Shown: positions 26,443-60,594 of the stretch, one piece after another | Numbering within the stretch: the stretch's first letter is position 1 | How the letters are laid out: each line of letters opens with the position of its first letter | Assembly (NCBI GenBank): GCA_965369655.1 | Contig: CBDUQR010000008.1 | Coordinates: 1 to 64,000, forward strand | Source of the DNA: an uncultured bacterium | Lineage (GTDB): Bacteria > Zixibacteria > MSB-5A5 > JAABVY01 > JAHJOQ01 | DNA: 64,000 nucleotides | Reading direction: 5' to 3' | Made by a program: the position numbers and the translations under genes | The notes under the pieces: generated by a model | Seen by the model: the letters and a program-made list of their open reading frames with translations, nothing else | Told to the model about the DNA's origin: nothing | The model's database searches: none

Positions 26443-26464
26443 GGTTCGCGACCTCCAGTTCTAC

Positions 26465-26627: not shown

Positions 26628-26657
26628 CGAATTCCAACGACCACTCTATACACCATG

Positions 26658-27608: not shown

Positions 27609-27612
27609 ACTA

Positions 27613-28500: not shown

Positions 28501-28502
28501 CC

Positions 28503-29489
28503 TTACGGGACCTCGATTGTGTCGAAGATTTTCCTTACTATGTCTTCGGTAGCGAGTTCTTCGGCTTCCGCCTCGTAGGTGAGGATGATCCGGTGCCTGA
28601 GAACATCCATGCCGATAGTCTTGACATCCTCCGGCGTGATATATCCGCGTCCCCTGAGAAATGCGTGCGCGCGAGATGCAAGATTGAGGTAGATGGTTGC
28701 CCTCGGCGATGCGCCGTACTCCACGAGGTCCCCTATATCCAGACCAAACTTCGCAGGCTCGCGCGAGGCCATCACGATGTTCACGATGTATTCCTTGACC
28801 TTCTCATCCACATAGATCTCTGAAACCACCTTGCGCGCGTTCAGGATTTCTTCAGGCGAGACTACCGGTGACGCCGACGGCTTGACGATTCCTGTCATTC
28901 GGTCCATGATTTCAAGCTCTTCGTCACGATTCGGATATGTGATCTTCAGCTTCAGCATGAAGCGATCAACCTGCGCTTCCGGAAGAGGATACGTGCCCTC
29001 CTGCTCGATCGGATTCTGGGTCGCAAGGACCAGGAATGGTTCATCAAGCGGATAGGTCGTATCGCCGATCGTTACCTGTCTCTCCTGCATAGCTTCGAGC
29101 AACGCGCTCTGGACTTTCGCCGGCGCGCGATTGATCTCATCCGCAAGGATTATATTCGAAAAGATCGGTCCCTTCTTCGGATAGAACGTCCCCTCCTGGG
29201 GCGAGTAGACCAGAGTGCCGATCAGGTCGGCGGGCAGGAGATCGGGAGTGAACTGGATTCTCTGGAACTTGGTCTTTATTGCGTCGGACAGCGTCTGGAT
29301 CGAGAGTGTCTTTGCCAGCCCCGGAACACCCTCGAGGAGAATATGGCCGTCAGCCAGCAGACCGATCAACAGTCGCTCGACTAAGTAGTCCTGCCCAACG
29401 ATAACCTTCCTGATCTCGTTGGTGAGGCCTTCGATGAAAGCAGATTCCTGCTCTACTCTCTGTTGTATTTCTCTGATGTCCTGATCCAT
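28503..29489 (-). CDS. moxR: MoxR-family AAA+ ATPase
   Basis: EGVPGLAKT; RIQFTPDLLP; DEINRAPAKVQSALLE; EGTYPLPEAQ. Confidence 0.96.
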   Translation of the reverse strand: MDQDIREIQQRVEQESAFIEGLTNEIRKVIVGQDYLVERLLIGLLADGHILLEGVPGLAKTLSIQTLSDAIKTKFQRIQFTPDLLPADLIGTLVYSPQEGTFYPKKGPIFSNIILADEINRAPAKVQSALLEAMQERQVTIGDTTYPLDEPFLVLATQNPIEQEGTYPLPEAQVDRFMLKLKITYPNRDEELEIMDRMTGIVKPSASPVVSPEEILNARKVVSEIYVDEKVKEYIVNIVMASREPAKFGLDIGDLVEYGASPRATIYLNLASRAHAFLRGRGYITPEDVKTIGMDVLRHRIILTYEAEAEELATEDIVRKIFDTIEVP

Positions 29490-35900: not shown

Positions 35901-36312
35901 GCGACGATGAACCGGAATTCGTCACCGGCAGTCGCTGGGTCGACTCGTAACTCGGCGCATTTCCGATCATACTCCGTGACTTTATAGCTCCCAGCTTTCT
36001 CCTGAAATAGTACGACGGTATGTCCACCCAGAAACGGCTGTACTCGACTGTGATAACCACTGGGGCTACCAACTCGCGGTTGATCTTAAGAGCGCCGGAA
36101 CCAGCGTCGAGAACGTAATCATCGCCACCGGCAATCTCTCCGTCGATCTCTACGCGCAATGTGTTGCTGATGATATTGTGGTTGCTCAGCCTTATGACGC
36201 CGGGAGACTCATCGAAACGAAATTCTTCCCGTATGATCGGGAGTTCACCATATAGAAAATCTGCGGAGAAAAGCAGGATTAAAACGATAAGAAAGCCTGA
36301 ACGACGCATCAC
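32989..36312 (-). CDS. Large outer-membrane beta-barrel protein (1107 aa), function unknown
   Basis: Signal peptide; amphipathic strands; C-terminal RARF; DYEIDYLLGEITF motif. Confidence 0.7.
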   Translation of the reverse strand: MMRRSGFLIVLILLFSADFLYGELPIIREEFRFDESPGVIRLSNHNIISNTLRVEIDGEIAGGDDYVLDAGSGALKINRELVAPVVITVEYSRFWVDIPSYYFRRKLGAIKSRSMIGNAPSYESTQRLPVTNSGSSSLRIFGSKSFGITAGSGTDLELKQTLNVQIEGYLTENLRVSGVLSDQAAPEVGGISTSIGEIDKVALKLSSDRFSASVGDVDFDRRMGAHGRLKKALKGASAQVSAGKVGADATLGGIKSKHATKKIFGRDGVSGPYRLLPDVGQSSVSILPSTDRVWLDGRPLARGADADYEIDYLLGEITFSPAITVTSRTRIEADFEYLDEDYRQDFFAGGAAYGDSASQLFARIDFLRQADSEDDPAQFDLSPDDINVLSAAGDHAMKALKSGVVKADSGQGDYSLEVTGSDTIYTFAGTGNGDYRVSFSYMGPGNGDYRYLGGGVYEYVAQGGGEYLPVVRIPLPESASALSLSTSVSDDHIRLRFDGTATKHDRNLLSELDDDDNDGMDISGGFNLTPFGRNAKQVYLNIGFNARLQDEKFFFPGRSDRVERNRYWGILTDSVSGEVLQLSLTETFRISKITELQADCGFYNLMHSPSAFRYSYDLTLSPTPELSGRVTRTDRNSERSWPYGNSRLYEDMISLNWMKSGIKTSFEWNDETDLRAYDSFTRGRRFDRYSGACGFRGFETRLSYENREALTGVFEREFDAREIEARYQGGGGFKSSDVRLSVRHRRVHYFIPTKFEQSQLTTSLDYSAGSSSSLVEMSVNYRLSREGVDRTAETFLRVGEGQGEYRLEDDIYVPDPFGDYIRVVEFSGAENVGVRMQRGATLFARFNKWKSCPASLAFLKRLTLEARARSNEQGGESEQFSIVWLVPHVSLFSGTRSWLDRSLRLSARAKASDQLSFLFTIDEIQLERPQQRPASSDYKLSILNRAEAKLTPRDLLTLEYRYRGMSQSNQSLGDARFDEHQAKCVLRHNLTVTTELVLKPRYLLDISRDGNLEVTLLEAGAEIWRRFPSRGRVGARFAYQNVSVSVGNAFVPFQYADGKRVGENYQWGLSAELRFSKSMSARLSYDGEKIPSVDTRHVSSVTVRARF

Positions 36313-37280
36313 TCAGGGATTGCCGGGCGAAACACCGCCACCTTGTCGGCCCCCTGATCCGACACATATATCCAGCCATTGTCACCGACGCAGACAGAAT
36401 GAGCGCGCATAAACTGATACAGCCCCCGTCCGGTCGATCCAAACGAGTATATCGCCTTGCCGTCTGAGGAGAAAACCGATATGCTGTTTCTCTTTTGGTC
36501 GACTGCGTAAATTCTGTCGGAGCGGTCAATCCAGATTCCGATCAGGTCTGACAATTCGCCATCGAGAAGCGACCTGACATAACCATCATAGCTGTCGAAC
36601 ACAATTAAGTTTCCCTCCTCCCGATTGACCACGTACAGATTGTCCCTGCTGTCGAATGCCATCGTTCCCGGATCGAGGAATCCTCCAAGCTCGGTCAACT
36701 CTGACAGCAGGTTGAACCCGGAGTCGAATCTGATCACTCGACTGTTCTCAGGATCCGAGACATAGATGTCACCGAAAGAGTTGACCGCAATGCTGCCGCC
36801 TCTTCCTATCGGGTATTCGAGCGACAAATCTCCCAGGTCTGTGCTTGAAAGCCAATTCAGGTCGTAGTCAAGGCGGACGATCCTGTCGTTTGAGCTGTCG
36901 AAAAGATAGAAATTAACTCTGTCCGAAGTTCCGAGCGATGTTGGCGAATTGAACTTGTCTCTCGTGAAACCGAATCCGCCTGTCTCCGTGAGGAATGTCC
37001 CGTCAGGTTTGACCTTGACGAGCCTGTTGTTACCCGTATCACATATTATCAGGTTCCCCGAAGGATCGAGCGATAGGGCACCGGGGCGAGACAATGCGCG
37101 AGTACCGAGCTTGCCTTGGATGTCGTTGACATGCACATATCCTGTGATCACACTGGATTGAGATTCGCGCATATCCCCCAATCGCTTTGCTCCACACGAC
37201 AGCGCGCAGGATACAATACAGATCGAAATCACTATCGTAAACGATCGCTGCAACATCTTTGATGCAAGTCTACGGATCAT
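36309..37280 (-). CDS. NHL-repeat beta-propeller, probable lipoprotein
   Basis: Lipobox-like ALSC; repeats GNLIICDTGNNR, GDIYVSD, GWIYVSD. Confidence 0.85.
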   Translation of the reverse strand: MIRRLASKMLQRSFTIVISICIVSCALSCGAKRLGDMRESQSSVITGYVHVNDIQGKLGTRALSRPGALSLDPSGNLIICDTGNNRLVKVKPDGTFLTETGGFGFTRDKFNSPTSLGTSDRVNFYLFDSSNDRIVRLDYDLNWLSSTDLGDLSLEYPIGRGGSIAVNSFGDIYVSDPENSRVIRFDSGFNLLSELTELGGFLDPGTMAFDSRDNLYVVNREEGNLIVFDSYDGYVRSLLDGELSDLIGIWIDRSDRIYAVDQKRNSISVFSSDGKAIYSFGSTGRGLYQFMRAHSVCVGDNGWIYVSDQGADKVAVFRPAIPE

Positions 37281-37339
37281 AGAACTAATATGAGAGCGAT
37301 CCCGATCGTGTGCAATAAGAATATCAGAGAAGACCGGCC

Positions 37340-38131
37340 TCAGAAACTGCGGTTGAATGAAAGTCGAATCTCCGGAGAATCACCGAGGCTATACGGCCCG
37401 ACCTCGAACTTGAAATTGGAGAACTCGTCGAGGAGTTGGCGATTGTGTCCTTTCGCGCTCCGCCATGCGAAGAAAGCGGATACCGCCCTGTTTATGGCTG
37501 CCGCCGCGAGCGCGAACCTGGCGACGCGATAGTATGACTTCGAATCATTCTTCAACTCGCGGTACGCTTGTTTATCCGTATCGCTTTGCCATTGCCAGTC
37601 CCACGCAGCCGTTTCCGGATAAAATGGATTGCTTGGTGTATAGACTCGCGAGAACCTGTTGTATTCATCTCTACTGTCGTGAAATCCGACCATATCCCAG
37701 AATGCGTCATCTTTCCCGGTCGGGTCGACACTTGCGTTTACCACGGCGTATTCGATGTAGTCGTCCTTTTTCCACTTTCCGAGATGTCTGTGGAGAATGA
37801 ACGTTGACCAGATACCGACCTCAGCAGTCAGAAAACTCGCAGCCCTTGTCCGTGAATCGCCAACATATATCTCACCGAGACCGGGGAGCAGCAGCGAGTA
37901 GAGCATTGCTCTGGATCTTGACTTGTAGCCCTCAGGTCTCTGCGCGACCGGGGAAAGACCGGGCGAGACTCCCCATTCGTCTCCGCCTGCCTGAGCAAGA
38001 TTGAACGGCGTCTGCGCCGAGAAGAAATATGTATTCGAGACAGCATCAACAGTGTCGGCATAGCTTGCAGGCAAATCAACCAGGAGCAGGGCCATGAACG
38101 TTAGAAAGGTTGCGAAAACTGATCTTGACAT
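37340..38131 (-). CDS. Hypothetical outer-membrane protein (SLLLPGLGE motif)
   Basis: Signal peptide; RAMLYSLLLPGLGEIY; C-terminal Phe. Confidence 0.7.
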   Translation of the reverse strand: MSRSVFATFLTFMALLLVDLPASYADTVDAVSNTYFFSAQTPFNLAQAGGDEWGVSPGLSPVAQRPEGYKSRSRAMLYSLLLPGLGEIYVGDSRTRAASFLTAEVGIWSTFILHRHLGKWKKDDYIEYAVVNASVDPTGKDDAFWDMVGFHDSRDEYNRFSRVYTPSNPFYPETAAWDWQWQSDTDKQAYRELKNDSKSYYRVARFALAAAAINRAVSAFFAWRSAKGHNRQLLDEFSNFKFEVGPYSLGDSPEIRLSFNRSF

Positions 38132-38148
38132 GCCATTCCTCTCGCGCT

Positions 38149-38982
38149 CTAATAGAACTTGTAAGTGAACGTCACCTGCGGAATCCGCTCGCCGTCTCGT
38201 TCTGCAAGCCTTGCCTTGACATTGACCTGAGAAAACGTGCTCTTCCTGCTATTAAATCTCTTGGCCGACAGGGCAGCGTCGAGTGCGGACAGCACATGAT
38301 TCGCGACGGAGAGCATCGCCCATGTTCTGGCTGTTTCGAACTTGTTGTTGGAATCGCCGCGCATGCCCAGATACTGCTGTCTTCGGGATGAACTCTCACT
38401 GGATCTGTCGACGTCGTCCCAGCCGAACACAAACTGATCCCACTTGCCAATCATCTCGTAGTACTGCTGTGTCTTTTCGCTCGGCAGATTGTGCGTGAAA
38501 CCTGTATCGAGAGGAGTATTTTCCGTCTCGACCAGCCAGATCGTATACCTGTCTTTGGACCAGTACTGATCAGCAAACTCCTCGAATTCTGTTTCCTTAT
38601 CCTGCCCGGTCGAATGATTCAAATAGTATTGAGACCAGCTCAGAATATCTATCGTGAAGAATAGGCCCGCCTTCCACTTTGAGCCGACATAGTACTCGCC
38701 GAGTCCCGGTACGAGGAACGAATAGATGAACGCCTTGCTCACGGAACGGTGTTCATATTCGTATATGTCGCTGTCAAAGAACGGAAAATCATTATAGTCG
38801 CTCGCGTCAGCCAGAGTCATCGGATCGACATCATTCAGCGTACTCAGCTTCTGCAGATACGCCCCCTGATCGGCCTGCAGCAACTCTCCGATACCGTAGT
38901 CGCGTCCATCGGACTGAGATGAGCCGAAAACCGCTGCTGTCAAAAGCGTCAGAGTAATCAATATTGTCGGGATGATACGCAT
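38149..38982 (-). CDS. Hypothetical outer-membrane protein, paralog of the adjacent gene
   Basis: KAFIYSFLVPGLGEYY; QQYYEMIGKW; aromatic C-terminus. Confidence 0.7.
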   Translation of the reverse strand: MRIIPTILITLTLLTAAVFGSSQSDGRDYGIGELLQADQGAYLQKLSTLNDVDPMTLADASDYNDFPFFDSDIYEYEHRSVSKAFIYSFLVPGLGEYYVGSKWKAGLFFTIDILSWSQYYLNHSTGQDKETEFEEFADQYWSKDRYTIWLVETENTPLDTGFTHNLPSEKTQQYYEMIGKWDQFVFGWDDVDRSSESSSRRQQYLGMRGDSNNKFETARTWAMLSVANHVLSALDAALSAKRFNSRKSTFSQVNVKARLAERDGERIPQVTFTYKFY

Positions 38983-39004: not shown

Positions 39005-42000
39005 TCATCTCACGACCGCGATCTTGTGTGATTTCACATCTTTCCGTCCGTTCGAATTCGCCTCAAGACGACAAATATATACGCCGGACGGATAGCCATC
39101 GAGCTTCCACTCATGGTCTTCCTGTATGTTCTCGCTTGTCTCGGTGGCTTCATATACGAGCCGACCGGACAGATCGAATATCTGAATGTTGATTGTCCCG
39201 GGACTCCGCAATTTGTACCTGATATTAGTCGCCTCGTCAGCAGGGTTGGGCCAGTTGTAGAGCGTGACGATAAGGTCGTCACCGGATGGCGACGTTGGTG
39301 CCAAATCGGATGATCCTCGGAAATTGTGATTCGTCGCTGACCTGCCTGATATTCGCCAGGACTGTTCGTCATCGAGTGGTCGGCTCTTCGTGCGAAGACC
39401 GTACAGCCTGTTGTCGGCGCAAATCGTCAGCAGCATTCCCTCAAAATTGTTAGATATGCTTCCCGGCATGACCGCCGACCCTGTATTGCGCCCGGAACCC
39501 GCAAATCGCGGGAAGCCGTTGACCATAACGCCGTTCGCTCCAAAGGCAAACAGTTCGCCATAAGGAGTGCCGATGAGAATATCGGGCACATCGTCGCCAT
39601 CGAGATCAGCAACGATAGGTGCAGCATCGAGCAACCCTGTTGAGACATGAATATCGATATCAACCGGGAAATTCTCGAACGGCGATCCGTTGTGATTGTA
39701 AACATAAAGCTTGTTGTCACCCGCGAATATGATCTGATACACCGCTGCCGTCGGATCGAGCGCCGCAGTCACGACATTACCGATCAGGCTGTCGCAGACT
39801 TTGATCTCGTTGACCGAGTAATCGTCTGAATCTGAAGACTGGCTCAGCAGGATGACAAGATATCCGTCGGACGTGAGAACAGCGAAGTCCGTCCCGTTCA
39901 TACCGTCGAGATCGGCGGCGGTGAAGCTGATTAGGTCCGCAGAACCGAAATCATGAATTGCCGAATCGGGATAGAGAACGAGAGCCGAACCGCCGTCCGG
40001 TCCAACGCCGATATAGTAAGACCGCTGTGATGCGCTATCGATGGCGAACTGCAAGGCATAAGCTTCTGTCACAACCGGCGGCATACCATACGAGAAATCG
40101 ACGAGGTGTATGGTACTGTCGGCGAATCCTGCAAGCACCCCGTACGATCCGAGCGGCGCCTGACTGACATCCACAGGACCAGACACGACCGCAGCAGTAC
40201 CTTCGTACTTCTCCACCAGATCCGCTCGACCGTCTTTGTCGTCATCAGTCAACTGCCAGACATAGATATTTCCTGAACTGGTCCCAACAGCTATTTCAGA
40301 GATTTCATCGCCATTGTAGTCGAACACCAACGGTGGTGTTGTAATTACCTCATTGTCGCCGACCGAAGCAATCGATCTGAGTGTATCGATGATAAAACCG
40401 CCGCCCTGAAGCGTGTCGCCGTAGAATACGAATATCGTATCAAGTATTTCTTCACCTGGTAATGGCTCGATAATTGGTGATCCATCTGGTTCCATCGCAA
40501 TCAGATGTTTCCTCCCTGACACAAAGATTTCCTCCACCCCATCGAAATCATAATCAACGAGAACCGGCGCAAAGCGAGAGCCATCGACGAACTTCGGGAA
40601 ACCATCCAGTTTGGATCGAAGTCTGACATCGAACGTCATGATGATGTCGTTCCTCGATACATTGTATATCTCTATTCCGGTATGAGCGCCGGTATTTGAC
40701 CGGGTCGATGGATTCGTAGTCGGTCCGAAAGTCGTATTGTTTCCCTCTACGAAAAATTCATCCGGACTGCCGAAACCGGTTCGGTAGTTCCCACCAAAAT
40801 CGACAATGCCGTCGGCTTCGACAAGCGAAACGAATCTCGTATTCTCCCACCAGACAGAATCAATGCAAAGCCCCAGATCATTCGGCACCTTGCATGGATA
40901 GAAATTGTACCATTGCAATTTATTGTCGGAAAAGTTATTAAAACCGTTCAGATCGTAATCGAGGTACGCCCTTGTTTCGTCAATGTGATAGATCAGTATG
41001 CCTGCACCGGGCACGAAGTAATCATAGTCGCGGGTCAGACGTATCTCATAATCATTGTTAGGTCTGGGTCCCAAAATCACGCCGGTCAGGCTGTCGACTC
41101 GCAATCCTGAGCCGCCATCCCGATCCGAGTCAGGCTGCCGATTCTCGATCAGATAATACTCCATGTCGCTTATCGGGACCTTGATGACCTGAGGCTCATC
41201 GGTCAGGAGTTCAGCCGCCGCGACCGACTGATTATTGACGTCGGAAACCTCCACAACCTCGACGAAACCGAGATATGCCCTCGACCATGCGTCAGGATAC
41301 ACAGGCAGCGGGTCGAGCACGAAACGGGTTCTGTCGGCCTCCGGGAAATAAATCTCCGCCGTTGTGCCGCGCCCCTGATTGTCCATCAGCGAAAAGTCTC
41401 CGATCTGAGTCATGAACGTCCGTGTGTCGTATAAATCGACAAGTCCGAGTTGATGGCCGAATTCATGTGCCAACACGCCGTTCAGAGCTATGACGCGATT
41501 GTCCTGAGATACGGCTTCAGGCGTCAGGACAGCTTCCCATATCGTGTCAGCGCCGCCATCGACAATAGCCCGGTGCTCGGAATCGACACGGATGAATCCG
41601 GTGTAAAAATCGTGCGGCGTGTTAGTCGCCGAAAACGTCAGATTCATCTGCTGATCGGCTCCGGCATGGAATAACACGAAAGCATCGAATTCGCTGAAAT
41701 CAATATCATCATCCAGATCAGCCTTCAGCAGGGCGTCCTGGAAAAAATCTGCAAGCCCGTCAAATGGGCTCTGCGAACCATAGTAAGACATCGGCTTTTC
41801 GAGCGTATATACAGAATCATCTCCCAATGGAAAGACGGTGCTGACGAGTTCGACGCGGCCCTTCGACACGACATGCCAGTACTGGTTCAACGCTCTCAGG
41901 TGCGTTTCGAAGTACCGCTTATTGTGCGGAGCCATGTCGATTTCATGTTCCTCATCGGCGATAAACTGCGACTGGCTTCGCATGTCAAAATGCCCATCAC

Positions 42001-42310
42001 CGGTGGTGTTGGCGTCATCAGGATCCTCGCGCTCGAATTGCACTCGAATCGCGCAGACGTTGATCGTAATCGTCTCATCCAATGCGAGAGCTGCGTCAGG
42101 CATGGAAAACGGAGCCTTGCGATTCAGACCGATGAGGTTTTTCTGTGAGATCGAACTCTGGAAGTTCTGTCGCGCTTCACTCTGAATGCGTTCATCAGCA
42201 TCGACCCGCTGCTTGCTTATGATGGTGAGAACATCTGACCCGGCAAGAGTCACGGCCTGCAACAGCGCGATCAGAAACAGCAGAGAAGCTGCGCCGAAAA
42301 TCCTTTTCAT
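39005..42310 (-). CDS. M6-like metalloprotease with FG-GAP repeats and T9SS C-terminal domain
   Basis: HEFGHQLGLVDLYD; FSLMD; EYYLIENR; ADLDGD repeats; YNWPNP...SGVYICR...KIAVVR. Confidence 0.85.
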   Translation of the reverse strand: MKRIFGAASLLFLIALLQAVTLAGSDVLTIISKQRVDADERIQSEARQNFQSSISQKNLIGLNRKAPFSMPDAALALDETITINVCAIRVQFEREDPDDANTTGDGHFDMRSQSQFIADEEHEIDMAPHNKRYFETHLRALNQYWHVVSKGRVELVSTVFPLGDDSVYTLEKPMSYYGSQSPFDGLADFFQDALLKADLDDDIDFSEFDAFVLFHAGADQQMNLTFSATNTPHDFYTGFIRVDSEHRAIVDGGADTIWEAVLTPEAVSQDNRVIALNGVLAHEFGHQLGLVDLYDTRTFMTQIGDFSLMDNQGRGTTAEIYFPEADRTRFVLDPLPVYPDAWSRAYLGFVEVVEVSDVNNQSVAAAELLTDEPQVIKVPISDMEYYLIENRQPDSDRDGGSGLRVDSLTGVILGPRPNNDYEIRLTRDYDYFVPGAGILIYHIDETRAYLDYDLNGFNNFSDNKLQWYNFYPCKVPNDLGLCIDSVWWENTRFVSLVEADGIVDFGGNYRTGFGSPDEFFVEGNNTTFGPTTNPSTRSNTGAHTGIEIYNVSRNDIIMTFDVRLRSKLDGFPKFVDGSRFAPVLVDYDFDGVEEIFVSGRKHLIAMEPDGSPIIEPLPGEEILDTIFVFYGDTLQGGGFIIDTLRSIASVGDNEVITTPPLVFDYNGDEISEIAVGTSSGNIYVWQLTDDDKDGRADLVEKYEGTAAVVSGPVDVSQAPLGSYGVLAGFADSTIHLVDFSYGMPPVVTEAYALQFAIDSASQRSYYIGVGPDGGSALVLYPDSAIHDFGSADLISFTAADLDGMNGTDFAVLTSDGYLVILLSQSSDSDDYSVNEIKVCDSLIGNVVTAALDPTAAVYQIIFAGDNKLYVYNHNGSPFENFPVDIDIHVSTGLLDAAPIVADLDGDDVPDILIGTPYGELFAFGANGVMVNGFPRFAGSGRNTGSAVMPGSISNNFEGMLLTICADNRLYGLRTKSRPLDDEQSWRISGRSATNHNFRGSSDLAPTSPSGDDLIVTLYNWPNPADEATNIRYKLRSPGTINIQIFDLSGRLVYEATETSENIQEDHEWKLDGYPSGVYICRLEANSNGRKDVKSHKIAVVR

Positions 42311-42336
42311 CGTTGATCCCTTTGTCTCATCCGCCA

Positions 42337-45300
42337 CTACAGCCTGCCTGTCAGTGAAATCCTGAGTGTATTCGCCAGCGCAACATTTTTGGATGTCGGA
42401 ATGTATGCGAAGTCAAATCTGATCCTGTTATACTGCAATCCGGCGCCAACCGTGAAATAGTTAATCGAACCGGCGTCATCGTTCCTGTAGCCTGCCCTGA
42501 GCGCTATGAACGATCCATACCAGTACTCGAAGCCAGCACTCCAGATTGCTTCCCTGAGCTCTTCGGAGAAGCCATCGTCGAGGTCCGTGATCCTCTTGTT
42601 GATCTCGCCAACGAGAGTGAACTTGTTGTACGGATTCCGCAGCAGGTCGTAAGCAAGTCCAACGGCTACATTTCTGGGCAACGGATCGGACTGCGCGGCA
42701 TCGATGTAGGCGATGTTCGGACCTAAATTGGTAATCGCCGCTCCGAATGTCAGCTTGTCAATGGGCGTATCATAAAGAATGCCCGCATCGACGGCGAATG
42801 CCGTCGCGGTACCCGACCCAACCTCTGCACCCGACCCTTGTGGGGAGAGTCGCGAATAGATGATCTTCGCAGTGAGTCCGAACGACAGACCGGGAGAAAC
42901 CCGAGTTCCATATGTCATACTCATCGCACCATCAAAGGCATGAAAAGTATCAACTACAGTCGAGCTGCCCTCGAGAGTCCGGGGGATCGAACCGTACGAC
43001 ATGAATGTCACGTTGAATCCGAGCGTTCCCCACTCATCTCCGAGGTGATGAGCGTATGATATATTTTCATAGTAGAGGTCGTCGGCAAGTTCCGGTGCGT
43101 ACTTGGCGTGCATCAAAGATAATTCGCTTTTTGCATGCGCGTACACAACCACCTTTCGCGGAGTGGCGAACCATCTCTCGCCGTCCTGGAGAATGATCCT
43201 GACAGTCCTCTCGGTCTGGAGATTACTGTGAAAATAGCTGCCGAATCGCTCTCCGTCATACGCTATCGTTCCGAATACTGTCCCAACAAAGACTCGTCCG
43301 TCTGAGGCCGCCAGACTGTAAATATGGCTTCCAAGATGATTCGCATAAATGTGAAACGTCTGGCCCTGTTTGACAGCATCTCCATCGATATGATTGTAGG
43401 TTTTGATCAGATGCGCCACACGCTCGGCATTTGCAGGTGACAGAGTCGGCTCGTGATCGAGCGCCGCCTCAGTTAAGCTCATATCTCTCGGCGCAGAATA
43501 CGGCCTCCATCCAAACACTCTGAACTCCCCGTTCGCGAGTATCTTCAGGCCATGCGTGGTTCCGACCCACAACTTATTGTCGGGACTATTGTACGCCATC
43601 GTCGTAATAGGATGTCTGAAGGCCACCGAGAATGGAATCATGATCTCCGTACCGGCATCAGGGAAATCCGTCTGCAGGTCGTTCTTCGATTTCAGTTGCT
43701 CTGCAATGTCTCTGATATAGCTCTCGTCCACGACACCAGAGAACTGTCTCACGATTCGCGTCAGCGTGTCGTTGACAACCGCAGTATATCGATAGTCGCT
43801 GCGCCATGTATCGCCGTTGAAAAACCATAGCTCGCTCCCTGCGGCCGCCCATGCCTTGTCTCGCGAATATCCATAGACTGTTGTGAATTCTTTGTCTACG
43901 AGTCCTGTCTCGGCAGCATAGAATGACCAACCGCCTTTGTAGTAGTGAGCGACGCCTCTGCCTGTAGCAACCCACATTCTATTCCCGTCATAGACGGAAA
44001 GATTGTTGATCTTATTTGATGGAAGCCCGTCCTCGACAGTGTACTTCTGCCATGCTCTGCCGTTGAACAAAAAGAGGCCGTCCTCAGTGCCGACCCAGAG
44101 AAGCTTCTCTGTCGCAGCGATACATGTAGGATCTTTGTCGAACGGAAGAGAATACGGCACGTACAGAGCTTCGGGCAAATGGCCTGCGTTCACCGAGTGA
44201 ATCGAAAACTCAAGTCGGGTTAACTCTTCCCCGGTCAGGCTGTCATCCGCAGTTGCCGTCTCGTATGCCGACATGAATGCAGAAAACCTCTCCGGAGAAA
44301 GCGTCATGTTGTCATACCACTCCGAAAGATTGTTCAAGTCAAAACTGAACATCGCTGTCGGCTCTTCGCCGTCATTGAAGCCGGCTTTCAGGTTGGCGAC
44401 TACATCATCAATATCATTGCCGGTGACGCCGTAATTGACGAACGACACCTTCTGCTTGAGCAGACTGAGTCTCTCCTCATCCGTCTCTGAAGTAAACGAG
44501 GAAATCAGATCGTCAAAAAGCTCTCCCCTTCTGGGAATCAGTCGCAAACTGGACTCCCATGATTGTGATTCACCGTCCCATCTGGCCAGCCCGGTTGAAG
44601 TAATCGCCCAGACGTCATACTTCGTGTAGTTCTCCTGAGGAATATCATTCTGAAAGATCGCGATATCCACGATCCTGGTCTCCCAGGGAAGCGAGTAGTC
44701 TTTCCAGATCGCCACAAGCACGACATACGGTACCCTGACCATCCGAGGCCTGCTCTTCTTCGAGGCACTCTTAAGTGTCTCCAGGACATCCGCATATTCC
44801 CGGTCTGTCAGCGACTCATCCTGCAAGACATGGTTGAGTCGTTCTTCGAGAAATGTAATAGATTCTGAGACGATCTTCAGGTTGTGCCAGTCGATCAAGA
44901 TTTTCTCGAAAAGCCTGTTGACCTCAGGTCCCTGGGAATCGTTCAGATATACCAGCAGATGTTGCCGCTCGGCTTCGATCTGATCGTACGACACTCCTGT
45001 ATTTTCCCGGGCGATCGATCTCACCGAGACCTTGAGCAGTTCGCGGTCATCCATCCTTGCGTTGGATGCGATATACTGCACGACAGGCATACTCGGGTCG
45101 ACTTCATACTCGATATAACGCTCTTCGCCCGACTCAGTAACTCGAGTCATGCCATCCGTGTCCAGCTTAAACTCACCTATCGTCTCAGCGTAAGCATCAG
45201 GTACTCGTCCCAGGAGTATGTCGATAGCCTTGGACCGCATCCCTTCATCTTTTCTCATGCTGAATTCGTGGTACTGGCTGGTGAGCGGGTATCTGCCGAG

Positions 45301-45495
45301 ACCGGCCGGATTCCAGTGCGTAGCCGTGGCATCATCCGCAACCGCAACGAAAGCCTCCCCCATGCCGGCGGCCCTGGCGCCCGGGGCGATCCTCAGAAAA
45401 AGAACGCCTGCATCCGACACGCCTGCGTGAGATTCGCCACAGAGCGCCATGACGCCAATTATTGCAGTCAGAATGACCAGAGTTCTGCTTCGCAT
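42337..45495 (-). CDS. porV: PorV-family T9SS barrel with ~720-aa internal insertion
   Basis: FLRIAPGARAAGMGEA...WNPAGL N-terminus; PorV-like barrel with LANTLRISL C-terminus; adjacent to porU. Confidence 0.8.
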   Translation of the reverse strand: MRSRTLVILTAIIGVMALCGESHAGVSDAGVLFLRIAPGARAAGMGEAFVAVADDATATHWNPAGLGRYPLTSQYHEFSMRKDEGMRSKAIDILLGRVPDAYAETIGEFKLDTDGMTRVTESGEERYIEYEVDPSMPVVQYIASNARMDDRELLKVSVRSIARENTGVSYDQIEAERQHLLVYLNDSQGPEVNRLFEKILIDWHNLKIVSESITFLEERLNHVLQDESLTDREYADVLETLKSASKKSRPRMVRVPYVVLVAIWKDYSLPWETRIVDIAIFQNDIPQENYTKYDVWAITSTGLARWDGESQSWESSLRLIPRRGELFDDLISSFTSETDEERLSLLKQKVSFVNYGVTGNDIDDVVANLKAGFNDGEEPTAMFSFDLNNLSEWYDNMTLSPERFSAFMSAYETATADDSLTGEELTRLEFSIHSVNAGHLPEALYVPYSLPFDKDPTCIAATEKLLWVGTEDGLFLFNGRAWQKYTVEDGLPSNKINNLSVYDGNRMWVATGRGVAHYYKGGWSFYAAETGLVDKEFTTVYGYSRDKAWAAAGSELWFFNGDTWRSDYRYTAVVNDTLTRIVRQFSGVVDESYIRDIAEQLKSKNDLQTDFPDAGTEIMIPFSVAFRHPITTMAYNSPDNKLWVGTTHGLKILANGEFRVFGWRPYSAPRDMSLTEAALDHEPTLSPANAERVAHLIKTYNHIDGDAVKQGQTFHIYANHLGSHIYSLAASDGRVFVGTVFGTIAYDGERFGSYFHSNLQTERTVRIILQDGERWFATPRKVVVYAHAKSELSLMHAKYAPELADDLYYENISYAHHLGDEWGTLGFNVTFMSYGSIPRTLEGSSTVVDTFHAFDGAMSMTYGTRVSPGLSFGLTAKIIYSRLSPQGSGAEVGSGTATAFAVDAGILYDTPIDKLTFGAAITNLGPNIAYIDAAQSDPLPRNVAVGLAYDLLRNPYNKFTLVGEINKRITDLDDGFSEELREAIWSAGFEYWYGSFIALRAGYRNDDAGSINYFTVGAGLQYNRIRFDFAYIPTSKNVALANTLRISLTGRL

Positions 45496-45510: not shown

Positions 45511-48500
45511 CTACTTGAGAACGACGAGTTTTCCAAATCCTTCTATCAAATCATTGTCACCTTCCGACGGGAAGATCAGCCTTCCCGAAGCGGTGATTCT
45601 GTATATATAGACTCCGTTAGCCAGCTTGTCCCCCCGGTTATCGAAAAGGCTCCACACCGAGGAAAGATTGTGACCTGCATCTGATGGTTGACTGCGCAAT
45701 GTTTCAATCAATCTACCACGCAACGTATATACTTCTATCGAGACGTCCCGAACCGGTTCGGACAGGAAGTACGAAAACCTCGTGTCGCTCGAAGCCGGAT
45801 TCGGGTAGTTGGCAATCCCTGTTATCCTGAGGTCCTCGGTTTCACCGACCGCCACATTGAGAACCAGCATGCTCGAGTTGTTGGCCGAATCCCACGACTT
45901 GACCCTCAGAGTATGAGAACCATGTTCGAGGGACGGTACTATAAACTCGACCTCACCCGACCGAAAACTTCCGGGATAATAAGCAAAATCATCCGTCAAG
46001 TCCATATCATACAGAAGCTCATCATCGAATCCGACCTCGATCCCATGTCCCACCTCTCCGGAGAGATTGATCCCCGAGCTGTCCGACAGCGTTATCGTAA
46101 GGCGTTCACCTGCTTCGAGAAGCCCGCCGTTGAACTTGCCGCCCGCAGCCAGCCTCAGTTCGATCACGGGGCCTGCCGTGTCGGTTATGGTCGGATTGGA
46201 CCCCGACACCTCAATCGAATCGACTGCGCCTGACGCCTGAGCAAATTCGTTCACAGCGTACGCGAGAATCTTAGCTGAGTTCTCGCCATAAGAAATATCT
46301 TTGGGCACTATAAAACTAAGCTCGAATCGTCCATCCGTAACTGGCCCCCTGCCTCGGAATATCCTCGGTCCCGGCAACTTGTAATGGAGAGAGTCGTGAT
46401 GAAGGGTGTCATTTGGGACAAGTTTCTTAGCTTTATTCCTGATCGCATCGTAGACCGTCACATAGACATCGCCGTCGAAGCTTTCGTCAATAGAACCATC
46501 GGTGTCCACCACATATCCTTCGACCGTTGTAAGAGCGAGAGCAGTAAGCGAATCCGGACTGACCGATGTGAAAGTGATACCTCTGTCCGGAATACCAAAC
46601 TTCATGAGCGGATCACCGAATACTATATATAGTCGGTCGTTTTCGTTTGTCGGTATCTGGCGAAGCAGCTTAGCGACATAGACAACCTCACACAGAGAAT
46701 ACCCGCCCTCACCGAACAGGAGATCAAACGTCTTGTAGTTAAAACCCGCGTTGTCGCCTGAGAAGACAAACCGGGTAGCCGCCAGTGATCCGATCGCCCC
46801 ACCCCCGCTGTATCTGAAAAGCTCCTCCGCCATAGCTTCTCTCAGAGGTGAATCGAACTTCCCGATAGAGCAGGAGGCATTGAAAAACACCGAGAGCTTA
46901 TCGCTGTTGGCCAGCTTGAACATATCTTCCTTCCAGTAGAAAACCCTCTCGTCGGCCCACAGATCGGGATTGCCATGACCGATGTAGTTTATCAATACTG
47001 TGCCGTCATTGACAGCCTGGATTATCCTGTCCCGGGCTTTCGGTTTGTGATTGAATGAATCGAATGGGTAATCGGTCAGATATATCTTCTGAACATCCAC
47101 AGTGGATGGCGTATGCTCATTAGCGAGAATCTCCGTCTGATTTGTATGAGCGGCCTCGCTCACCTTGCTGCGGTTTTTCTTGAACTCATCGTCCGCGACA
47201 AGTGTAATCAGATTGCGCCATGGCCCGTAGTTCGACCTGTTTTCATACGAGATTAGTTTCTGGACATACGATCCGATCTCGCCGAGCGACCTGACCGGCC
47301 ATCGGGCTATGACCATATCGACCCCGCGGTCGACGCCGTACGACGTGTCGGAATCGAGAACCCCTCTTCCCGCGAAATTTACGAAATTCTCGTCGGTCAC
47401 CGCCCTGTCCTCAGCGGCGACATACGGCGGAATGTATATGGTCTGGTTCCTGCCTAAGTAGTTCCTATAATCGTAGTGGCCGTCCCCTACAATCAGCGCA
47501 GCACCGGGCGCAGAGACGGAATTCTCGAAACTGTACTTCAGGAAATCCCGTATCGCAACCGGATCGAACATACCGGCGGAATACTGCCTGAAAATATCAT
47601 CGAGATCGACAAGCGCGACCGAGTAGCCCTGCGCCTCCCGATACAATACATATTCTTCGATGGCGTTGTGGAATTCCATGGGAGGTATATTTGGAGCAAT
47701 GATTATCAGATCATCGTCGTAAGCGACCCGTGGCTCAGCCTGTGGAGTTACCTGCAGAACCGAAGGCGTTAGCATCTGTGACTTCGAGACAAGAGCGAAA
47801 CGCTCGAATCGTGAACCGGCAGTGGACCAGTCAAAACTGAGAGAGCCGCCGTCGATCACAAAATCTGTCAGGAATGCCTGATTGTCGACATCCGCGATGC
47901 TCAGGAGAATCATATCCGATCCAGAATTGCCAACAGTATATCTGTGCACGCCGGGTCCATTCCAGGTGTAGAAATCGAGCGAACCTGATGTGTACGCCAG
48001 GTCTGTCGGATAAATAATCTCGAAATAGTCGAGTAGTGGGATCAGGTAGTACCTCTCCTGACGGAATTCAATTTTGTTCAAGCCGCTGAAGTGCTCCACC
48101 GTAATCACTTTCGGATTCTCAGTTGGATTTGTTCCGTAATGTGCCCCGTTGACAACGACCGTAAGTGAATCATCAACCGATGTCACGAGAAGAGTACAGG
48201 TTGGGAATGGTTGAATATCATCAAGCTGAAAATCTATTTCAAAGTCGCCATCATCACGCCAGAACCACCTGTAGTAGTCTCTGATATATCCACCCGACCC
48301 AATTTCGAGGAACCGGTTCTCTTCGTATCTCCGGAACTTGTGAAACTCGGTGTGAAGGGTTGGACTGTCCGAATCAGGCGCAACCTGTACTGTCTCCATT
48401 CGTTTCGGTAGTTCCGGGAAACTGCCGCCGTGTGTCAGCCACAGATAGGCTGTCGATGTATAGCCATTCCTGACAAGCTCGGGTCTTTTCCTAGATGGAT

Positions 48501-49575
48501 CGACATTCAGGAAATCCGCTCCGTGCGCATAGAAGATGATCTCATCGCCAACGTCGAGTATCCCATCGGATTCACCCTCGACTCGTATCGCTATTTCACG
48601 GAATTCAGGTCTCGCTACACTGTTATCATTCGGCAACTCTCGGCCACCCATCCAGAAAACCCGAAGCGTCTTCGGATCAATGGACGCTGTATCCATACCT
48701 GCATTGCTGAGCGCGGTTCCGCTAATACTGTAGACGCCTGCATCTTCAATCCCGATCTTGACCCATGACGCAGAGTGCGCAAACGGATCAAACGTCTCTG
48801 CTCTCTTCAGTGCGATAAGAGACGGCTGACGTGGCACGCGCCAGTTTTTCGCCTGCTCGTAGTTGAGAAGAGTCGCTCTGAAGATTCTCTCGAATGCATC
48901 ATCCCTGAGCGAAAGAACGCCTGTCTCTGGTGCGGGATCGAATTCGACAAGGACTTCTATCTCACCCGCTACAGCCGAGGCTATCCCGCCAGATGAAATC
49001 CTGACCGGACTGATCAGCAGTTCGAGAATCCTCTGGTCCCGGATGAAATACGGCCCACGTGTTGATAATACCGGATAGCTCGCCGTCGCCTTAGCCTGCT
49101 GAAACCGGGCGTTGTCGAACAGGGTCTCCTCACGGGGACGGTTCAAAGGTTGTGTGATTGGATCTATTCCCTTGTAACTCGATGAAACTACCGACACTCT
49201 CGGCTCCGATCCGACCGGAATACCCATTATCACTTTGCGGATCGGAATCCTCGCGAATCCCGTCTCTTCGTTCAGAGCGCACCTCGAGATATCAACCATG
49301 CGCTCGCCTGACACCTCATCGACTCGTATCTCATACGGCTCGGGTATATATATGAAGCGAATATGCGAATCGCTCGATTCGAGAATTCGAACATCTCTGT
49401 ATTCCGGGAGGGAGTCCGCTCTAACCGAGAGGACAGAAATGAGGACAGCAACAGTCGCGAGAACGACTGGCCGTATCGACCGACTAAATCTTTTGATCAC
49501 TAAAGCTATCATAACGAAAACCGACAGCAAAAAAGCCGGAGTGTCAGACTTCCGGCCGCAAAGCCGCCCGAACAT
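45511..49575 (-). CDS. porU: T9SS sortase PorU (peptidase C25); start uncertain
   Basis: WVKIGIEDAGVY; NYIGHG and ASCSIG catalytic His/Cys; FGDP; NYPNP...LANGVYIY...GKLVVLK CTD. Confidence 0.9.
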   Translation of the reverse strand: MFGRLCGRKSDTPAFLLSVFVMIALVIKRFSRSIRPVVLATVAVLISVLSVRADSLPEYRDVRILESSDSHIRFIYIPEPYEIRVDEVSGERMVDISRCALNEETGFARIPIRKVIMGIPVGSEPRVSVVSSSYKGIDPITQPLNRPREETLFDNARFQQAKATASYPVLSTRGPYFIRDQRILELLISPVRISSGGIASAVAGEIEVLVEFDPAPETGVLSLRDDAFERIFRATLLNYEQAKNWRVPRQPSLIALKRAETFDPFAHSASWVKIGIEDAGVYSISGTALSNAGMDTASIDPKTLRVFWMGGRELPNDNSVARPEFREIAIRVEGESDGILDVGDEIIFYAHGADFLNVDPSRKRPELVRNGYTSTAYLWLTHGGSFPELPKRMETVQVAPDSDSPTLHTEFHKFRRYEENRFLEIGSGGYIRDYYRWFWRDDGDFEIDFQLDDIQPFPTCTLLVTSVDDSLTVVVNGAHYGTNPTENPKVITVEHFSGLNKIEFRQERYYLIPLLDYFEIIYPTDLAYTSGSLDFYTWNGPGVHRYTVGNSGSDMILLSIADVDNQAFLTDFVIDGGSLSFDWSTAGSRFERFALVSKSQMLTPSVLQVTPQAEPRVAYDDDLIIIAPNIPPMEFHNAIEEYVLYREAQGYSVALVDLDDIFRQYSAGMFDPVAIRDFLKYSFENSVSAPGAALIVGDGHYDYRNYLGRNQTIYIPPYVAAEDRAVTDENFVNFAGRGVLDSDTSYGVDRGVDMVIARWPVRSLGEIGSYVQKLISYENRSNYGPWRNLITLVADDEFKKNRSKVSEAAHTNQTEILANEHTPSTVDVQKIYLTDYPFDSFNHKPKARDRIIQAVNDGTVLINYIGHGNPDLWADERVFYWKEDMFKLANSDKLSVFFNASCSIGKFDSPLREAMAEELFRYSGGGAIGSLAATRFVFSGDNAGFNYKTFDLLFGEGGYSLCEVVYVAKLLRQIPTNENDRLYIVFGDPLMKFGIPDRGITFTSVSPDSLTALALTTVEGYVVDTDGSIDESFDGDVYVTVYDAIRNKAKKLVPNDTLHHDSLHYKLPGPRIFRGRGPVTDGRFELSFIVPKDISYGENSAKILAYAVNEFAQASGAVDSIEVSGSNPTITDTAGPVIELRLAAGGKFNGGLLEAGERLTITLSDSSGINLSGEVGHGIEVGFDDELLYDMDLTDDFAYYPGSFRSGEVEFIVPSLEHGSHTLRVKSWDSANNSSMLVLNVAVGETEDLRITGIANYPNPASSDTRFSYFLSEPVRDVSIEVYTLRGRLIETLRSQPSDAGHNLSSVWSLFDNRGDKLANGVYIYRITASGRLIFPSEGDNDLIEGFGKLVVLK

Positions 49576-50621: not shown

Positions 50622-50648
50622 AGAAGGAAACAGCAATGAGAGTTGAAT

Positions 50649-52097
50649 ATGAATGACAAACCACCCAAAGCTTTCGTCTCATACAGTTGGTCGTCACCAG
50701 GCCATTGTGACAGAATCCGCTCGTACGCCGAACGCCTCGTCGGCGACGGAGTCGACATCATTCTCGACCAGTGGCATCTGTCCGAAGGACAAGACAAGTA
50801 CGCTTTCATGGAGAGGATGGTGAGTGATGAATCGGTGACCCATGTACTCATCTTCTCCGACCAAGAATATGCTACGAAGGCCGATGGCCGGAAGGCTGGT
50901 GTCGGTACTGAGACCCAGATCATCTCCAAAGAGATTTACGATAAGACAGACCAGAACAAGTTCATACCAATAGTCTGCGAGAGGCAGGAAGACAACGAGC
51001 CGTGCTTGCCAGTTTTCCTAAAGTCTCGCATAATGATTGACTTCAGTTCCCCCGAATCAACGAATGAACATTGGGAGAAGTTACTTCGTGCGCTATATGG
51101 CAAGCCAATTCATACGAAGCCTAGTCTTGGAAAACCACCATCATACATTACTGATGATGCCCAGAAACCATCCCTTCCAACCTTGGGCAGATATTTAACA
51201 TTACGAGATGCCTTGTTGAACGGCAAACCCACTATCCCTCTTTGTAGGCAAGATTTCATAGACTCCGCGATCTCTTATGCGGATGCATTGCGCGTTCGAG
51301 AGGATCCCAATGTCGATCACATCGACGAGAAAGTTCTGGAGGACCTCCATACCATGCTTCCGCTCCGGGATCAATTGATTGACTGGCTACTTATTGAGAC
51401 TGCTCTTCAAACGGACTCGGAGTTCAAGGAAGTTCTTCTTGGTTTCCTTGAAAAATTGCTTGCCCTCAAGTATCGTCTACCTGAACTGACTCAATGGAAC
51501 GAATCATGGTTCGATGCCCAGAGGTTCTTCGTGTATGAAATGTTTCTGTATCTTATCGCAATACTTATCAAGAACAACAGATACGGCACTATTCAGTCAT
51601 TCCTGACAACTAGCTACTTACTGCCCGAGTCGGAACAGCGGTTGAGAAGAGATTTTGTCTCATTTGATGAGTTCCACACACACTCTGAAGCGTTAGCATA
51701 TCGGAATGATCGTCTGAAGCTCAATCGGCTCAGTCCTATCGCAGACCTTGTTAAAGAACGTGCAACAAGAAAAGATTTACCGTTTCGGGACATTATGCAA
51801 GCAGAACTAGTTGTCCTTCTAGTTTCACTTCTTTCTGATGGCCAGCTTTGGTATCCTCACACGATCGTTTACGCCAGCCGAAACCAACGTTTCCCGTTAT
51901 TTGTGCGAGCCGCCCAACACAAGTACTTTGAAAGATTGAACACGATCACAGGAATCAAGTCAGGCGATGAGCTACGAGAGAAATTCAAAGATGGGTGGGA
52001 AGAACATAATACCAACCAATGGATACCCTGGATGTTTAGGACAAATGTATCAATTTGGGATTCAATGAACATGGATGCCTTGGATACAATAACATGA
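50649..52097 (+). CDS. SEFIR/TIR domain protein
   Basis: KAFVSYSWSS...GVDIILDQWHL...GVGTE...KFIPIV. Confidence 0.85.
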   Translation: MNDKPPKAFVSYSWSSPGHCDRIRSYAERLVGDGVDIILDQWHLSEGQDKYAFMERMVSDESVTHVLIFSDQEYATKADGRKAGVGTETQIISKEIYDKTDQNKFIPIVCERQEDNEPCLPVFLKSRIMIDFSSPESTNEHWEKLLRALYGKPIHTKPSLGKPPSYITDDAQKPSLPTLGRYLTLRDALLNGKPTIPLCRQDFIDSAISYADALRVREDPNVDHIDEKVLEDLHTMLPLRDQLIDWLLIETALQTDSEFKEVLLGFLEKLLALKYRLPELTQWNESWFDAQRFFVYEMFLYLIAILIKNNRYGTIQSFLTTSYLLPESEQRLRRDFVSFDEFHTHSEALAYRNDRLKLNRLSPIADLVKERATRKDLPFRDIMQAELVVLLVSLLSDGQLWYPHTIVYASRNQRFPLFVRAAQHKYFERLNTITGIKSGDELREKFKDGWEEHNTNQWIPWMFRTNVSIWDSMNMDALDTIT

Positions 52098-60058: not shown

Positions 60059-60594
60059 GCCAAATTTGATATGCTCCTATTTGGAATATCTACTCTCAAT
60101 CGAGATATCGCGTAGATTGACACACGTCACATATATGTATTCATCGGCCTTGCGAACCACAAACTCAAGGAATCTGATTCACGTTTCCTGAACAACGGAC
60201 GCCACATACGCCAAACAAAAAGACGATGACTGTATAGGTGTGGCTGTGGTAGTCCTTGACATGTTGATGGGCGGCAGACGTTCCCTCTGCCTCAATCTGA
60301 GAGACGGATTTCTTCGCTTGTTGCGGAACACAGACCTGTATGCTGCGTGATGTAATAATCAATGGTAAAGTAGTAAACACGTGGAAATCATCCAGCCATA
60401 ATGGCTATCTGGCGTATTGTCAACTATCCGCACCTCATTGTCGATATGTGAATAGAAGCTGATTGCATTGTGGGACAACAACGTAAGATTGCAGCTATTC
60501 AGGTATGTTTTTCATTGACGACCAATGGAGACAGCCATAGATTCAGATGTCGCTCATTGACGAGTTGGTTCCTCAAGAGAAAACGAGGTTCAAT

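Follow-up and report, generated by a model that had tools for sequence, protein, structure and literature searches.

A long PorV-family protein with a predicted periplasmic propeller and LysM module from a Zixibacteria-lineage bacterium

Introduction

To our knowledge, nearly all that is known about type IX secretion systems (T9SS) comes from Bacteroidota. In these bacteria PorV is a bare barrel of approximately 400 amino acids (aa) thought to carry cargo from the translocon, and anchoring to the cell wall is assigned to a separate protein. This report describes a PorV-family protein of 1052 aa encoded by an uncultured bacterium of the Zixibacteria lineage, in the first 64,000 nucleotides (nt) of contig CBDUQR010000008.1 (assembly GCA_965369655.1); this whole stretch is referred to as the window. 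Between its hatch segment and its first barrel strand the protein carries an insert of about 710-715 residues, which appears to combine a beta-propeller, two LysM domains and helical modules and which very probably lies in the periplasm. A lineage outside Bacteroidota would have built a candidate cell-wall-binding periplasmic module into the carrier itself. A search of the literature outside subscription journals retrieved no paper joining Zixibacteria with type IX secretion or T9SS and none, among what were mostly titles and abstract openings, describing a PorV with a LysM or propeller insertion of such architecture. In databases the long PorVs bear the generic name "PorV/PorQ family protein".

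The long PorV gene and its product

The gene occupies the reverse strand of the window and its GC content is even along its length (0.52). The parts of the gene are given below as window coordinates, strand and residues of the product; secondary structure was taken from a full-length AlphaFold2 (AF2) model.

42337..45495 (-), long PorV-family outer-membrane protein, 1052 aa, a single uninterrupted open reading frame (ORF)
45277..45495 (-), signal peptide and hatch segment with NPAGL, residues 1-73, aligned to Flavobacterium johnsoniae PorV 5-64
44710..45246 (-), extra unit of a blade-like beta meander plus a six-helix module, residues 84-262, found in the ~1050-aa clade only
44155..44709 (-), propeller blade 1 and six-helix module B, residues 263-447, found in every long PorV of the Zixibacteria type
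43810..44154 (-), propeller blades 2-4 of Reg_prop type, residues 448-562, four-strand beta repeats in the model
43621..43809 (-), LysM unit 1, residues 563-625, between blades, with a PDB profile match and a predicted beta-alpha-alpha-beta order
43519..43620 (-), propeller blade 5, residues 626-659, four AF2 strands at 630-661, holding LWVGTTHGL
43336..43518 (-), LysM unit 2, residues 660-720, between blades, with a PDB profile match and a predicted beta-alpha-alpha-beta order
43141..43335 (-), propeller blades 6-7, residues 721-785, up to barrel strand 1, model strands 725-785
42337..43140 (-), 14-strand FadL/PorV-type beta-barrel, residues 786-1052, plus stop codon, from AF2 secondary structure

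The original prediction had identified the product as a PorV, and family models, alignment and structure comparison agree with it. The protein matches Pfam PorV (PF19572; 9.1e-21, 74.9 bits against a cut-off of 27) in separated stretches. The NCBIfam PorV_fam model (NF033709, cut-off 90 bits) also matches in two places and scores 253.7 bits, the strongest part being residues 785-1049. The alignment to F. johnsoniae PorV (6h3i_F, E 2.3e-26) pairs query residues 5-65 with PorV 5-64 and query residues 785-970 with PorV 67-258; the hatch motif NPAGL (residues 62-66) falls on the WNPA of 6h3i_F, and the barrel as a whole aligns to PorV 67-392. PorV chains are also the best Foldseek matches (8gl6_F, E 3.5e-11; 6h3i_F, 3.6e-10), with a template modelling (TM) score by target of 0.54. 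Since the scores of the PorV equivalog NF033710 (195.3 bits in three stretches, cut-off 250), the PorQ equivalog (80.3 against 220) and the PorV2 equivalog (52.9 against 325) all remain below their cut-offs, the protein is classed, on the basis of its sequence, as PorV-like and outside the curated Bacteroidota equivalog.

Because the alignment splits at F. johnsoniae PorV 64/67, about 715 residues of the window protein stand where an ordinary PorV has two, directly before strand 1. This is the junction at which the original prediction had located an insertion, and the span that it gave (43129-45294, residues 68-789) corresponds to the insert. The FadL-type junction between hatch and strand 1 is in this case tolerant of very large domain insertions.

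Anatomy of the insert

The full-length AF2 model was obtained from a 10-sequence alignment (mean predicted local distance difference test score, pLDDT, 71.5) and was read as secondary structure, without coordinates. Within the insert the pLDDT falls in blocks of 75-93. The final blade strand occupies residues 781-785 and barrel strand 1 residues 790-798, four residues further on.

The propeller belongs to the Reg_prop type. Pfam Reg_prop (PF07494) scores 29.6 bits on the window protein against a cut-off of 20.4 and matches nine of ten relatives (best 7.2e-17), and the repeat motifs from which a propeller had been predicted are all present (LWVGTEDGL 466-474, MWVATGRGV 507-515, LWVGTTHGL 642-650). 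A phmmer comparison aligns residues 457-540 with the periplasmic sensor BT4663 (4a2l, E 2e-11), and the Foldseek matches that follow PorV come from the periplasmic sensors in hybrid two-component systems of Bacteroides (E 2e-10 to 1e-7; 3ott, 3va6 and 4a2l at 2e-10 to 3e-8), the whole-chain TM scores to the latter three being low as a result of the many-domain query. Judging from the model, the number of blades is probably about seven.

The insert also contains two helical modules, which together with the lineage-wide occurrence of the architecture and the precedent of PorE (see below) go beyond the original prediction. Residues 84-262 and 263-447 align with each other in hhalign at a probability of 99.5 % (E 4.2e-23) and are best read as tandem duplicates of one another. 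The second copy is the general one: at least 39 residues of the helical module region 263-447 are kept in all 70 intact ORFs of the related loci described below, and at least 120 residues in the region 84-262 are found in 16 of 71 aligned rows. When modelled in isolation on 68 sequences the module is predicted as six helices with a pLDDT of 90.7. It has no fold neighbour in the PDB by Foldseek (best E 1.2, TM at most 0.31), its profile retrieves nothing from PDB sequences (best 0.055) and no usable match was obtained in the ESM Atlas, so that with the long PorV comes a helical module that is predicted with confidence and has no relative among solved structures.

The LysM units

The motifs on which two LysM-like units had been proposed are in place, in unit 1 as YTAVVNDTLTRIVRQF (570-585), KNDL (604-607) and AGTEIMIP (614-621) and in unit 2 as YSAPRDMSL (666-674), YNHI (700-703) and QGQTFHIY (710-717). 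The units of the related loci were cut out by alignment column and the resulting profiles were searched against the PDB. The profile of unit 1 (47 sequences) matches LytE (8i2e_B, E 5.2e-11) and the Thermus thermophilus NlpC/P60 protein (4uz2_A, 6.8e-6), and its top matches include the chitin-binding Ecp6; that of unit 2 (68 sequences) matches 4uz2_A (E 1.2e-10), LytE (2.9e-10), 4xcm (1.1e-8) and AtlA (2mkx, 1.3e-4). For both units the alignments span the entire LysM domain.

A scan with the Pfam LysM family (PF01476) over the excised region 560-725 of 71 proteins gave single-member matches at E <= 0.01 in 32 of them (best 1.4e-14), and eight of ten relatives match at E <= 1. In the AF2 model both units show the beta-alpha-alpha-beta order of secondary structure at a pLDDT of about 85-90 (strand 567-571, helices 578-586 and 591-604, strand 617-621 in unit 1; strand 663-667, helices 674-681 and 687-701, strand 713-717 in unit 2). 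Among the 68 sequences of unit 2 the hallmark Asn701 is invariant and Gly711 is conserved in at least 90 %. Taken together, the family profile matches, the 32 Pfam matches and the hallmark Asn and Gly of unit 2 argue that both units are diverged yet genuine LysM domains. Such domains generally bind polymers of N-acetylglucosamine (GlcNAc), and the binding is non-covalent.

The region of unit 1 is filled in 70 of 70 intact ORFs and that of unit 2 in 68 of 70, a count that includes one protein, L076, with non-LysM propeller-like repeats at this position. L076 (1147 aa) lies outside the clade with the duplicated helical module, and about 276 residues of extra propeller-like repeats replace its LysM unit 2 (L076:6462-7820).

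Distribution and conservation

A word-indexed search with the insert alone retrieved full-length relatives of about 1050 aa at 77-48 % identity, one of them named as a Zixibacteria PorV/PorQ family protein, together with distant forms of 820-909 aa. An exhaustive phmmer search of 1.84 billion representatives returned dozens of 50 %-identity clusters (720-1050 aa) aligned from about query residue 262 to the end. A scan of species-representative genomes gave 598 relatives, the best 80 of which, in 78 loci, were analysed, and all 78 of these loci encode long forms. Eight loci were set aside from protein-level counts: six cut by contig ends (L002, L015, L046, L060, L064 and L068), L010, and L035, the 5' part of which is broken. 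In L010 the long PorV gives tblastn matches in two frames, a probable frameshift or assembly error in the record. The 70 intact ORFs encode proteins of 795-1147 aa (median 909.5).

The loci are labelled as Zixibacteria (37), Ignavibacteria, -les or -ceae (26), unclassified bacteria (13), Acidobacteriota (1) and FCB group (1). In a FastTree phylogeny of 71 proteins the Ignavibacteria and Zixibacteria labels interleave down to near-identical pairs (L025/L033, L018/L061), and label changes on the tree number 19 against 21.0 after shuffling. Because of this interleaving all the long-PorV loci are treated as one lineage. Ignavibacteria as a second host phylum was ruled out, the 25 rows so labelled being interspersed with Zixibacteria rows; the labels of the 26 "uncultured Ignavibacteria/-les/-ceae" metagenome-assembled genome records (including L004, L006 and L008) look unreliable. 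The nearest relatives of the window protein are L001 (61 %) and L034 (55 %), and the forms of at least 1000 aa with the duplicated module constitute a single clade (16 rows, support 95).

Mean pairwise identity among the 71 long PorVs is 0.76 in the hatch, 0.53 in the barrel and 0.22-0.39 in the parts of the insert. As the insert module is present in 70 of 70 intact ORFs despite evolving faster than the barrel, it appears to be retained under selection. Rather than being peculiar to a single genome, the long form can be regarded as standard across an entire phylum-level lineage, in which a central component of the T9SS is built in a different way. Among 106 shorter PorV matches, those with a Zixibacteria label are either flagged as partial or no more than fragments of 136-146 aa, and the nearest complete short forms with a label come from GN15, Latescibacteria or KSB1.

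Two further groups of long PorVs were encountered. One, of about 690-810 aa, has Reg_prop repeats ahead of the barrel, and the other, of about 830 aa, has roughly 500 residues without family assignment in the same place. The group of P0194, a representative of this kind of propeller-bearing protein, comprises at least 323 clusters (90 % identity) at E <= 1e-30. Among the 120 matches listed for it, all seven organism-named proteins are from Chitinivibrionales, and the three profiles match 101 (LysM unit 1), 55 (LysM unit 2) and 3 (helical module) of the 120; in P0194 itself a long helical insertion interrupts the LysM-like unit, which comes after the first blade. None of the three profiles has a match among the sensor-kinase-type Reg_prop proteins retrieved by the insert search. 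A propeller and LysM ahead of a PorV barrel seem, on this evidence, to be common to at least two FCB-group lineages outside Bacteroidota. In addition, six proteins of 731-1111 aa (P0192, P0202, P0210, P0236, P0219 and P0256) have, ahead of the barrel, about 450-700 residues to which neither Pfam nor any of the three profiles gives a match. Insertion at the junction of hatch and strand 1 seems to be a general phenomenon.

Membrane orientation of the insert

The periplasmic location of the insert, as first proposed, finds support by inference from its position before strand 1 and from FadL-type topology. The C-terminus of an outer-membrane barrel marks the periplasmic side, and since the number of strands is even (14, as in FadL and PorV), strand 1 should start on the side of the C-terminus. 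The lengths of the connections agree with a periplasmic start of strand 1: in the AF2 model those after odd-numbered strands measure 9, 6, 11, 16, 17, 4 and 10 residues and those after even-numbered strands 6, 2, 5, 7, 3 and 2, long loops against short turns being the usual pattern of outer-membrane barrels. The solved structures most closely related to the propeller also come from the periplasm. It is thus very probable that the module is placed in the periplasm, at the periplasmic mouth of the barrel.

Genomic context

The genes adjoining the long porV are arranged as follows.

45511..49575 (-), porU, T9SS sortase (C25 peptidase plus C-terminal sorting domain), T9SS_sortase 641.3 bits against 420
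39005..42337 (-), M6-like metalloprotease carrying FG-GAP repeats as well as a C-terminal sorting domain of T9SS type A, directly downstream of the long porV
32989-38982 (-), four further downstream genes, recurring in related loci where the flanks reach

The gene porU lies 15 nt upstream of the long porV. The protease encoded downstream matches Pfam Por_Secre_tail (1.3e-10) as well as Peptidase_M6, and scores 345.7 bits against NCBIfam T9SSA_dep_M6i ("inactivated" M6-like), under the cut-off of 600. Its HExxH motif is intact (HEFGH) and the enzyme may for this reason be active. Of the 78 related loci, 72 have porU upstream and 76 have the M6-like gene downstream, and the loci that lack one or the other are those that end too early. 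The recurrence of both genes around the long porV identifies the protein as the PorV of a conserved cluster of porU, porV and substrate genes, and the order of porU, long porV and sorting-domain substrate counts in favour of its PorV identity. The product is read as a PorV-type carrier or anchor barrel of the T9SS in a Zixibacteria-lineage bacterium.

Among the genes further downstream, those encoding DUF5683-like proteins (277 and 263 aa) recur in 58 and 56 of the 78 loci, that of an NHL-repeat protein in 41 and that of a 1107-aa protein without family assignment in 46. The 1107-aa protein was considered as a small SprA-like (SprA/Sov) translocon and set aside, the sole pointer being a weak Atlas lead (0.87) to which PDB sequences and Pfam at E <= 10 lend no support.

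Possible roles of the insert

The interpretation towards which the analysis leans, and which may be somewhat better founded than not, is that the LysM module holds on to peptidoglycan, by which the station formed by PorU and PorV is anchored or positioned. The chain would leave the hatch just before strand 1 and form a module of about 710 residues below the periplasmic mouth of the barrel, made of a propeller of approximately seven Reg_prop blades, two LysM domains between the blades and one six-helix bundle (two in the clade of the window protein). The LysM pair would attach to the glycan strands in peptidoglycan, with the propeller and the helical bundles as a spacer or docking platform, and the cell wall would in this way hold or position the complex of the PorU sortase with PorV. 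Peptidoglycan binding by the LysM units is proposed with moderate confidence from their sequence relationships, and a reduced lateral mobility of PorV, which the original prediction had envisaged, would be a weak further implication. Should the module bind peptidoglycan, the long PorVs would offer a natural test of whether mobility of the carrier is essential and a compact model for positioning an outer-membrane part of the T9SS with respect to the cell wall; the module could also be grafted at the matching junction of a laboratory Flavobacterium PorV.

Several points weigh against this interpretation. The LysM assignment is clearer for the family than for the window protein taken alone, which reaches 12.8 bits as a whole and 18.7 bits in the excised region against the Pfam cut-off of 20.9, and 39 of the 71 family members individually miss E 0.01. 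Both units carry an insertion of about nine residues between the two helices in comparison with canonical LysM, for which reason their ligand could differ. The membrane side is deduced from the insertion point and the FadL-type topology rather than observed, and in the full-length model the hatch has a pLDDT below 35 and the 14-strand barrel a pLDDT of only 50-65. The transport mechanism raises a further difficulty. According to the literature, PorV binds the sorting domain of substrates through its extracellular loops, and in the models for Bacteroidota it leaves the SprA translocon with its cargo using energy supplied by a periplasmic chain (PMC10994853; PMC12635249); within the attachment complex, PorV serves in addition as the anchor of PorU (PMC12365241). 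A firm tether to the cell wall fits awkwardly with models of PorV ejection, because the current transport model needs PorV to move.

A more far-reaching version of the anchoring interpretation is rather doubtful. The PorV of Zixibacteria, and in simpler guise that of Chitinivibrionales, might be a trans-envelope unit that grips the sacculus instead of a free shuttle, the module perhaps also gripping parts that transduce energy; the sortase station would in that case stay in place, the hand-over of substrates would be unlike that of Bacteroidota, and the six-helix module would be a new coupling fold.

The insert could alternatively act as a handle for protein docking. Its propeller and helical bundles would in that case link PorV to further components of the T9SS, for instance a PorK/N-like ring, a PorW/SprE-like adaptor or a motor arm, or else the module would receive substrates in the periplasm. 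In either variant the LysM units would have a minor or structural role, and the two are jointly regarded as unlikely. Propellers and helical bundles are common scaffolds of protein interaction, and the six-helix module, which lacks a solved fold match, is present in 70 of 70 members of the Zixibacteria-type family, while the Chitinivibrionales-type proteins keep the propeller and mostly lack the helical module (3 of the 120 matches listed). In Bacteroidota, moreover, ejection of the complex of PorV and substrate needs energy from the periplasmic chain (PMC10994853), and the carriers SprF and PorG have periplasmic tails by which they are linked to the periplasmic track (PMC12635249). Against docking it may be noted that no partner was identified and that both LysM units are kept across the family, a retention from which it is argued that they matter. 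A cysteine handle of the SprF/PorG type, which forms a disulfide, was ruled out in the module: the search for a conserved Cys in 71 sequences gave a best column of 34 of 71, and the column of Cys458 of the window protein has 16 of 71.

It is very unlikely that the insert works as a periplasmic sugar sensor, in which GlcNAc oligomers (fragments from cell-wall turnover or imported chito-oligosaccharides) bound to the LysM units or the propeller modulate secretion. The closest solved relatives of the propeller are indeed glycan-sensing periplasmic domains of hybrid two-component systems, the general affinity of LysM for GlcNAc polymers and the presence of Ecp6 among the top matches are compatible with such a role, and a related architecture is common in Chitinivibrionales-labelled proteins; yet the protein has no output domain, the barrel is its sole attachment and the proposal is purely inferential.

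Display of the insert outside the cell, as an adhesin or glycan-binding module, is at least as improbable. LysM and propeller domains are also found on surface proteins, PorZ, a surface component of the T9SS with two propellers, appears at Foldseek rank 32, and the full-length model is weak in the hatch. However, the insert ends four residues before strand 1, on the side marked as periplasmic by the C-terminus, and the lengths of loops and turns fit a periplasmic start. The hatch of FadL carries the NPA motif and plugs the lumen (PMC8407342), and in the case of an outside location the chain would need to cross this plugged lumen and return. A folded module of 80 kDa cannot fit within the barrel lumen.

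Lastly, an artefact of assembly or gene calling that fused unrelated pieces is practically out of the question, and the misassembly that the original prediction had named as its refutation is itself refuted, since the architecture recurs in 78 independent loci, in 70 of them as a single intact ORF and in independent assemblies that include complete chromosomes, with even composition and with the two halves of hatch and barrel conserved in register.

Comparison with known systems

The proteins closest to the window protein in their barrel are the PorVs of F. johnsoniae (Fjoh_1555, 6H3I/8GL6 chain F) and Porphyromonas gingivalis, which have the same WNPA hatch and FadL-type barrel. The known PorV is the carrier of T9SS type A substrates and the anchor of PorU, and the window gene adjoins the gene of the PorU sortase. 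The window protein differs from F. johnsoniae PorV in its additional ~715 residues between hatch and strand 1 and in the position of its host outside Bacteroidota.

A precedent for the combination of elements in the insert is PorE (PG1058) of P. gingivalis, a periplasmic lipoprotein with TPR, a five-bladed propeller, CRD and OmpA_C. Its OmpA_C domain was co-crystallised with a fragment of peptidoglycan, and a role as cell-wall anchor of the T9SS was proposed for PorE (PMC7192894); it forms complexes with the barrel PorP (bioRxiv 10.1101/2020.05.13.094771). In both cases helical and propeller elements and a peptidoglycan-binding element, putative in the window protein, are associated with a T9SS barrel, in the window protein within one chain. 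PorE, in contrast, is a separate lipoprotein that is bound non-covalently to PorP and not to PorV, and its OmpA_C binds the stem peptide, whereas the LysM units of the window protein would bind glycan. The resemblance is functional only and not one of homology: no PorE chain is found among the five PDB matches at E <= 0.001, and Pfam and NCBIfam detect no OmpA_C, TPR or CRD.

The hybrid two-component sensors of Bacteroides (BT4663, BT4673 and BT3049) share the Reg_prop blade family with the window protein, and their sensor domains are periplasmic. They consist of double propellers with Y_Y_Y and a kinase, whereas the window protein has a single propeller with LysM and helical insertions and a barrel. 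With the LysM domains of cell-wall enzymes (Bacillus subtilis LytE, T. thermophilus 4UZ2/4UZ3, Enterococcus faecalis AtlA 2MKX) the units of the insert share profile homology across the whole unit and the hallmark residues, and differ from them in lying between blades instead of in tandem on a linker, in the ~9-residue insertion and in their weak individual scores. Finally, the PorV/PorQ proteins of Chitinivibrionales (about 780-810 aa, for instance P0194) present the same order of hatch, Reg_prop propeller with a LysM-like unit and PorV barrel. They are shorter, with one split LysM-like unit and a six-helix module in 3 of the 120 matches listed, and share 36 % identity with the window protein over the matched stretches, the best of these being the barrel (query 793-1037).

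Other features of the window

A few additional genes and gene groups were observed in the window. Upstream of the porU cluster and on the opposite strand, 50643-52097 (+) encodes a 484-aa protein with an N-terminal SEFIR/TIR domain, which has no counterpart in the 78 related loci and may be a defence-type gene. Two paired genes at 60547-62366 (+) code for an ATPase of 408 aa (AAA_21/AAA_15) and for a 198-aa DUF4276 protein, a make-up known from some abortive-infection-type modules. A fragment of an IS1/IS6-like transposase (57.9 bits, cut-off 100) is found at 3092-3937 (-), where the GC content is lower (0.47 at 2001-6000). A Bat/MoxR-type operon at 20994-29489 (-) comprises DUF58, VWA BatA/BatB-like, TPR BatC-like, BatD and AAA ATPase genes and is located downstream of genes for an Omp85/POTRA protein and a UbiA prenyltransferase.

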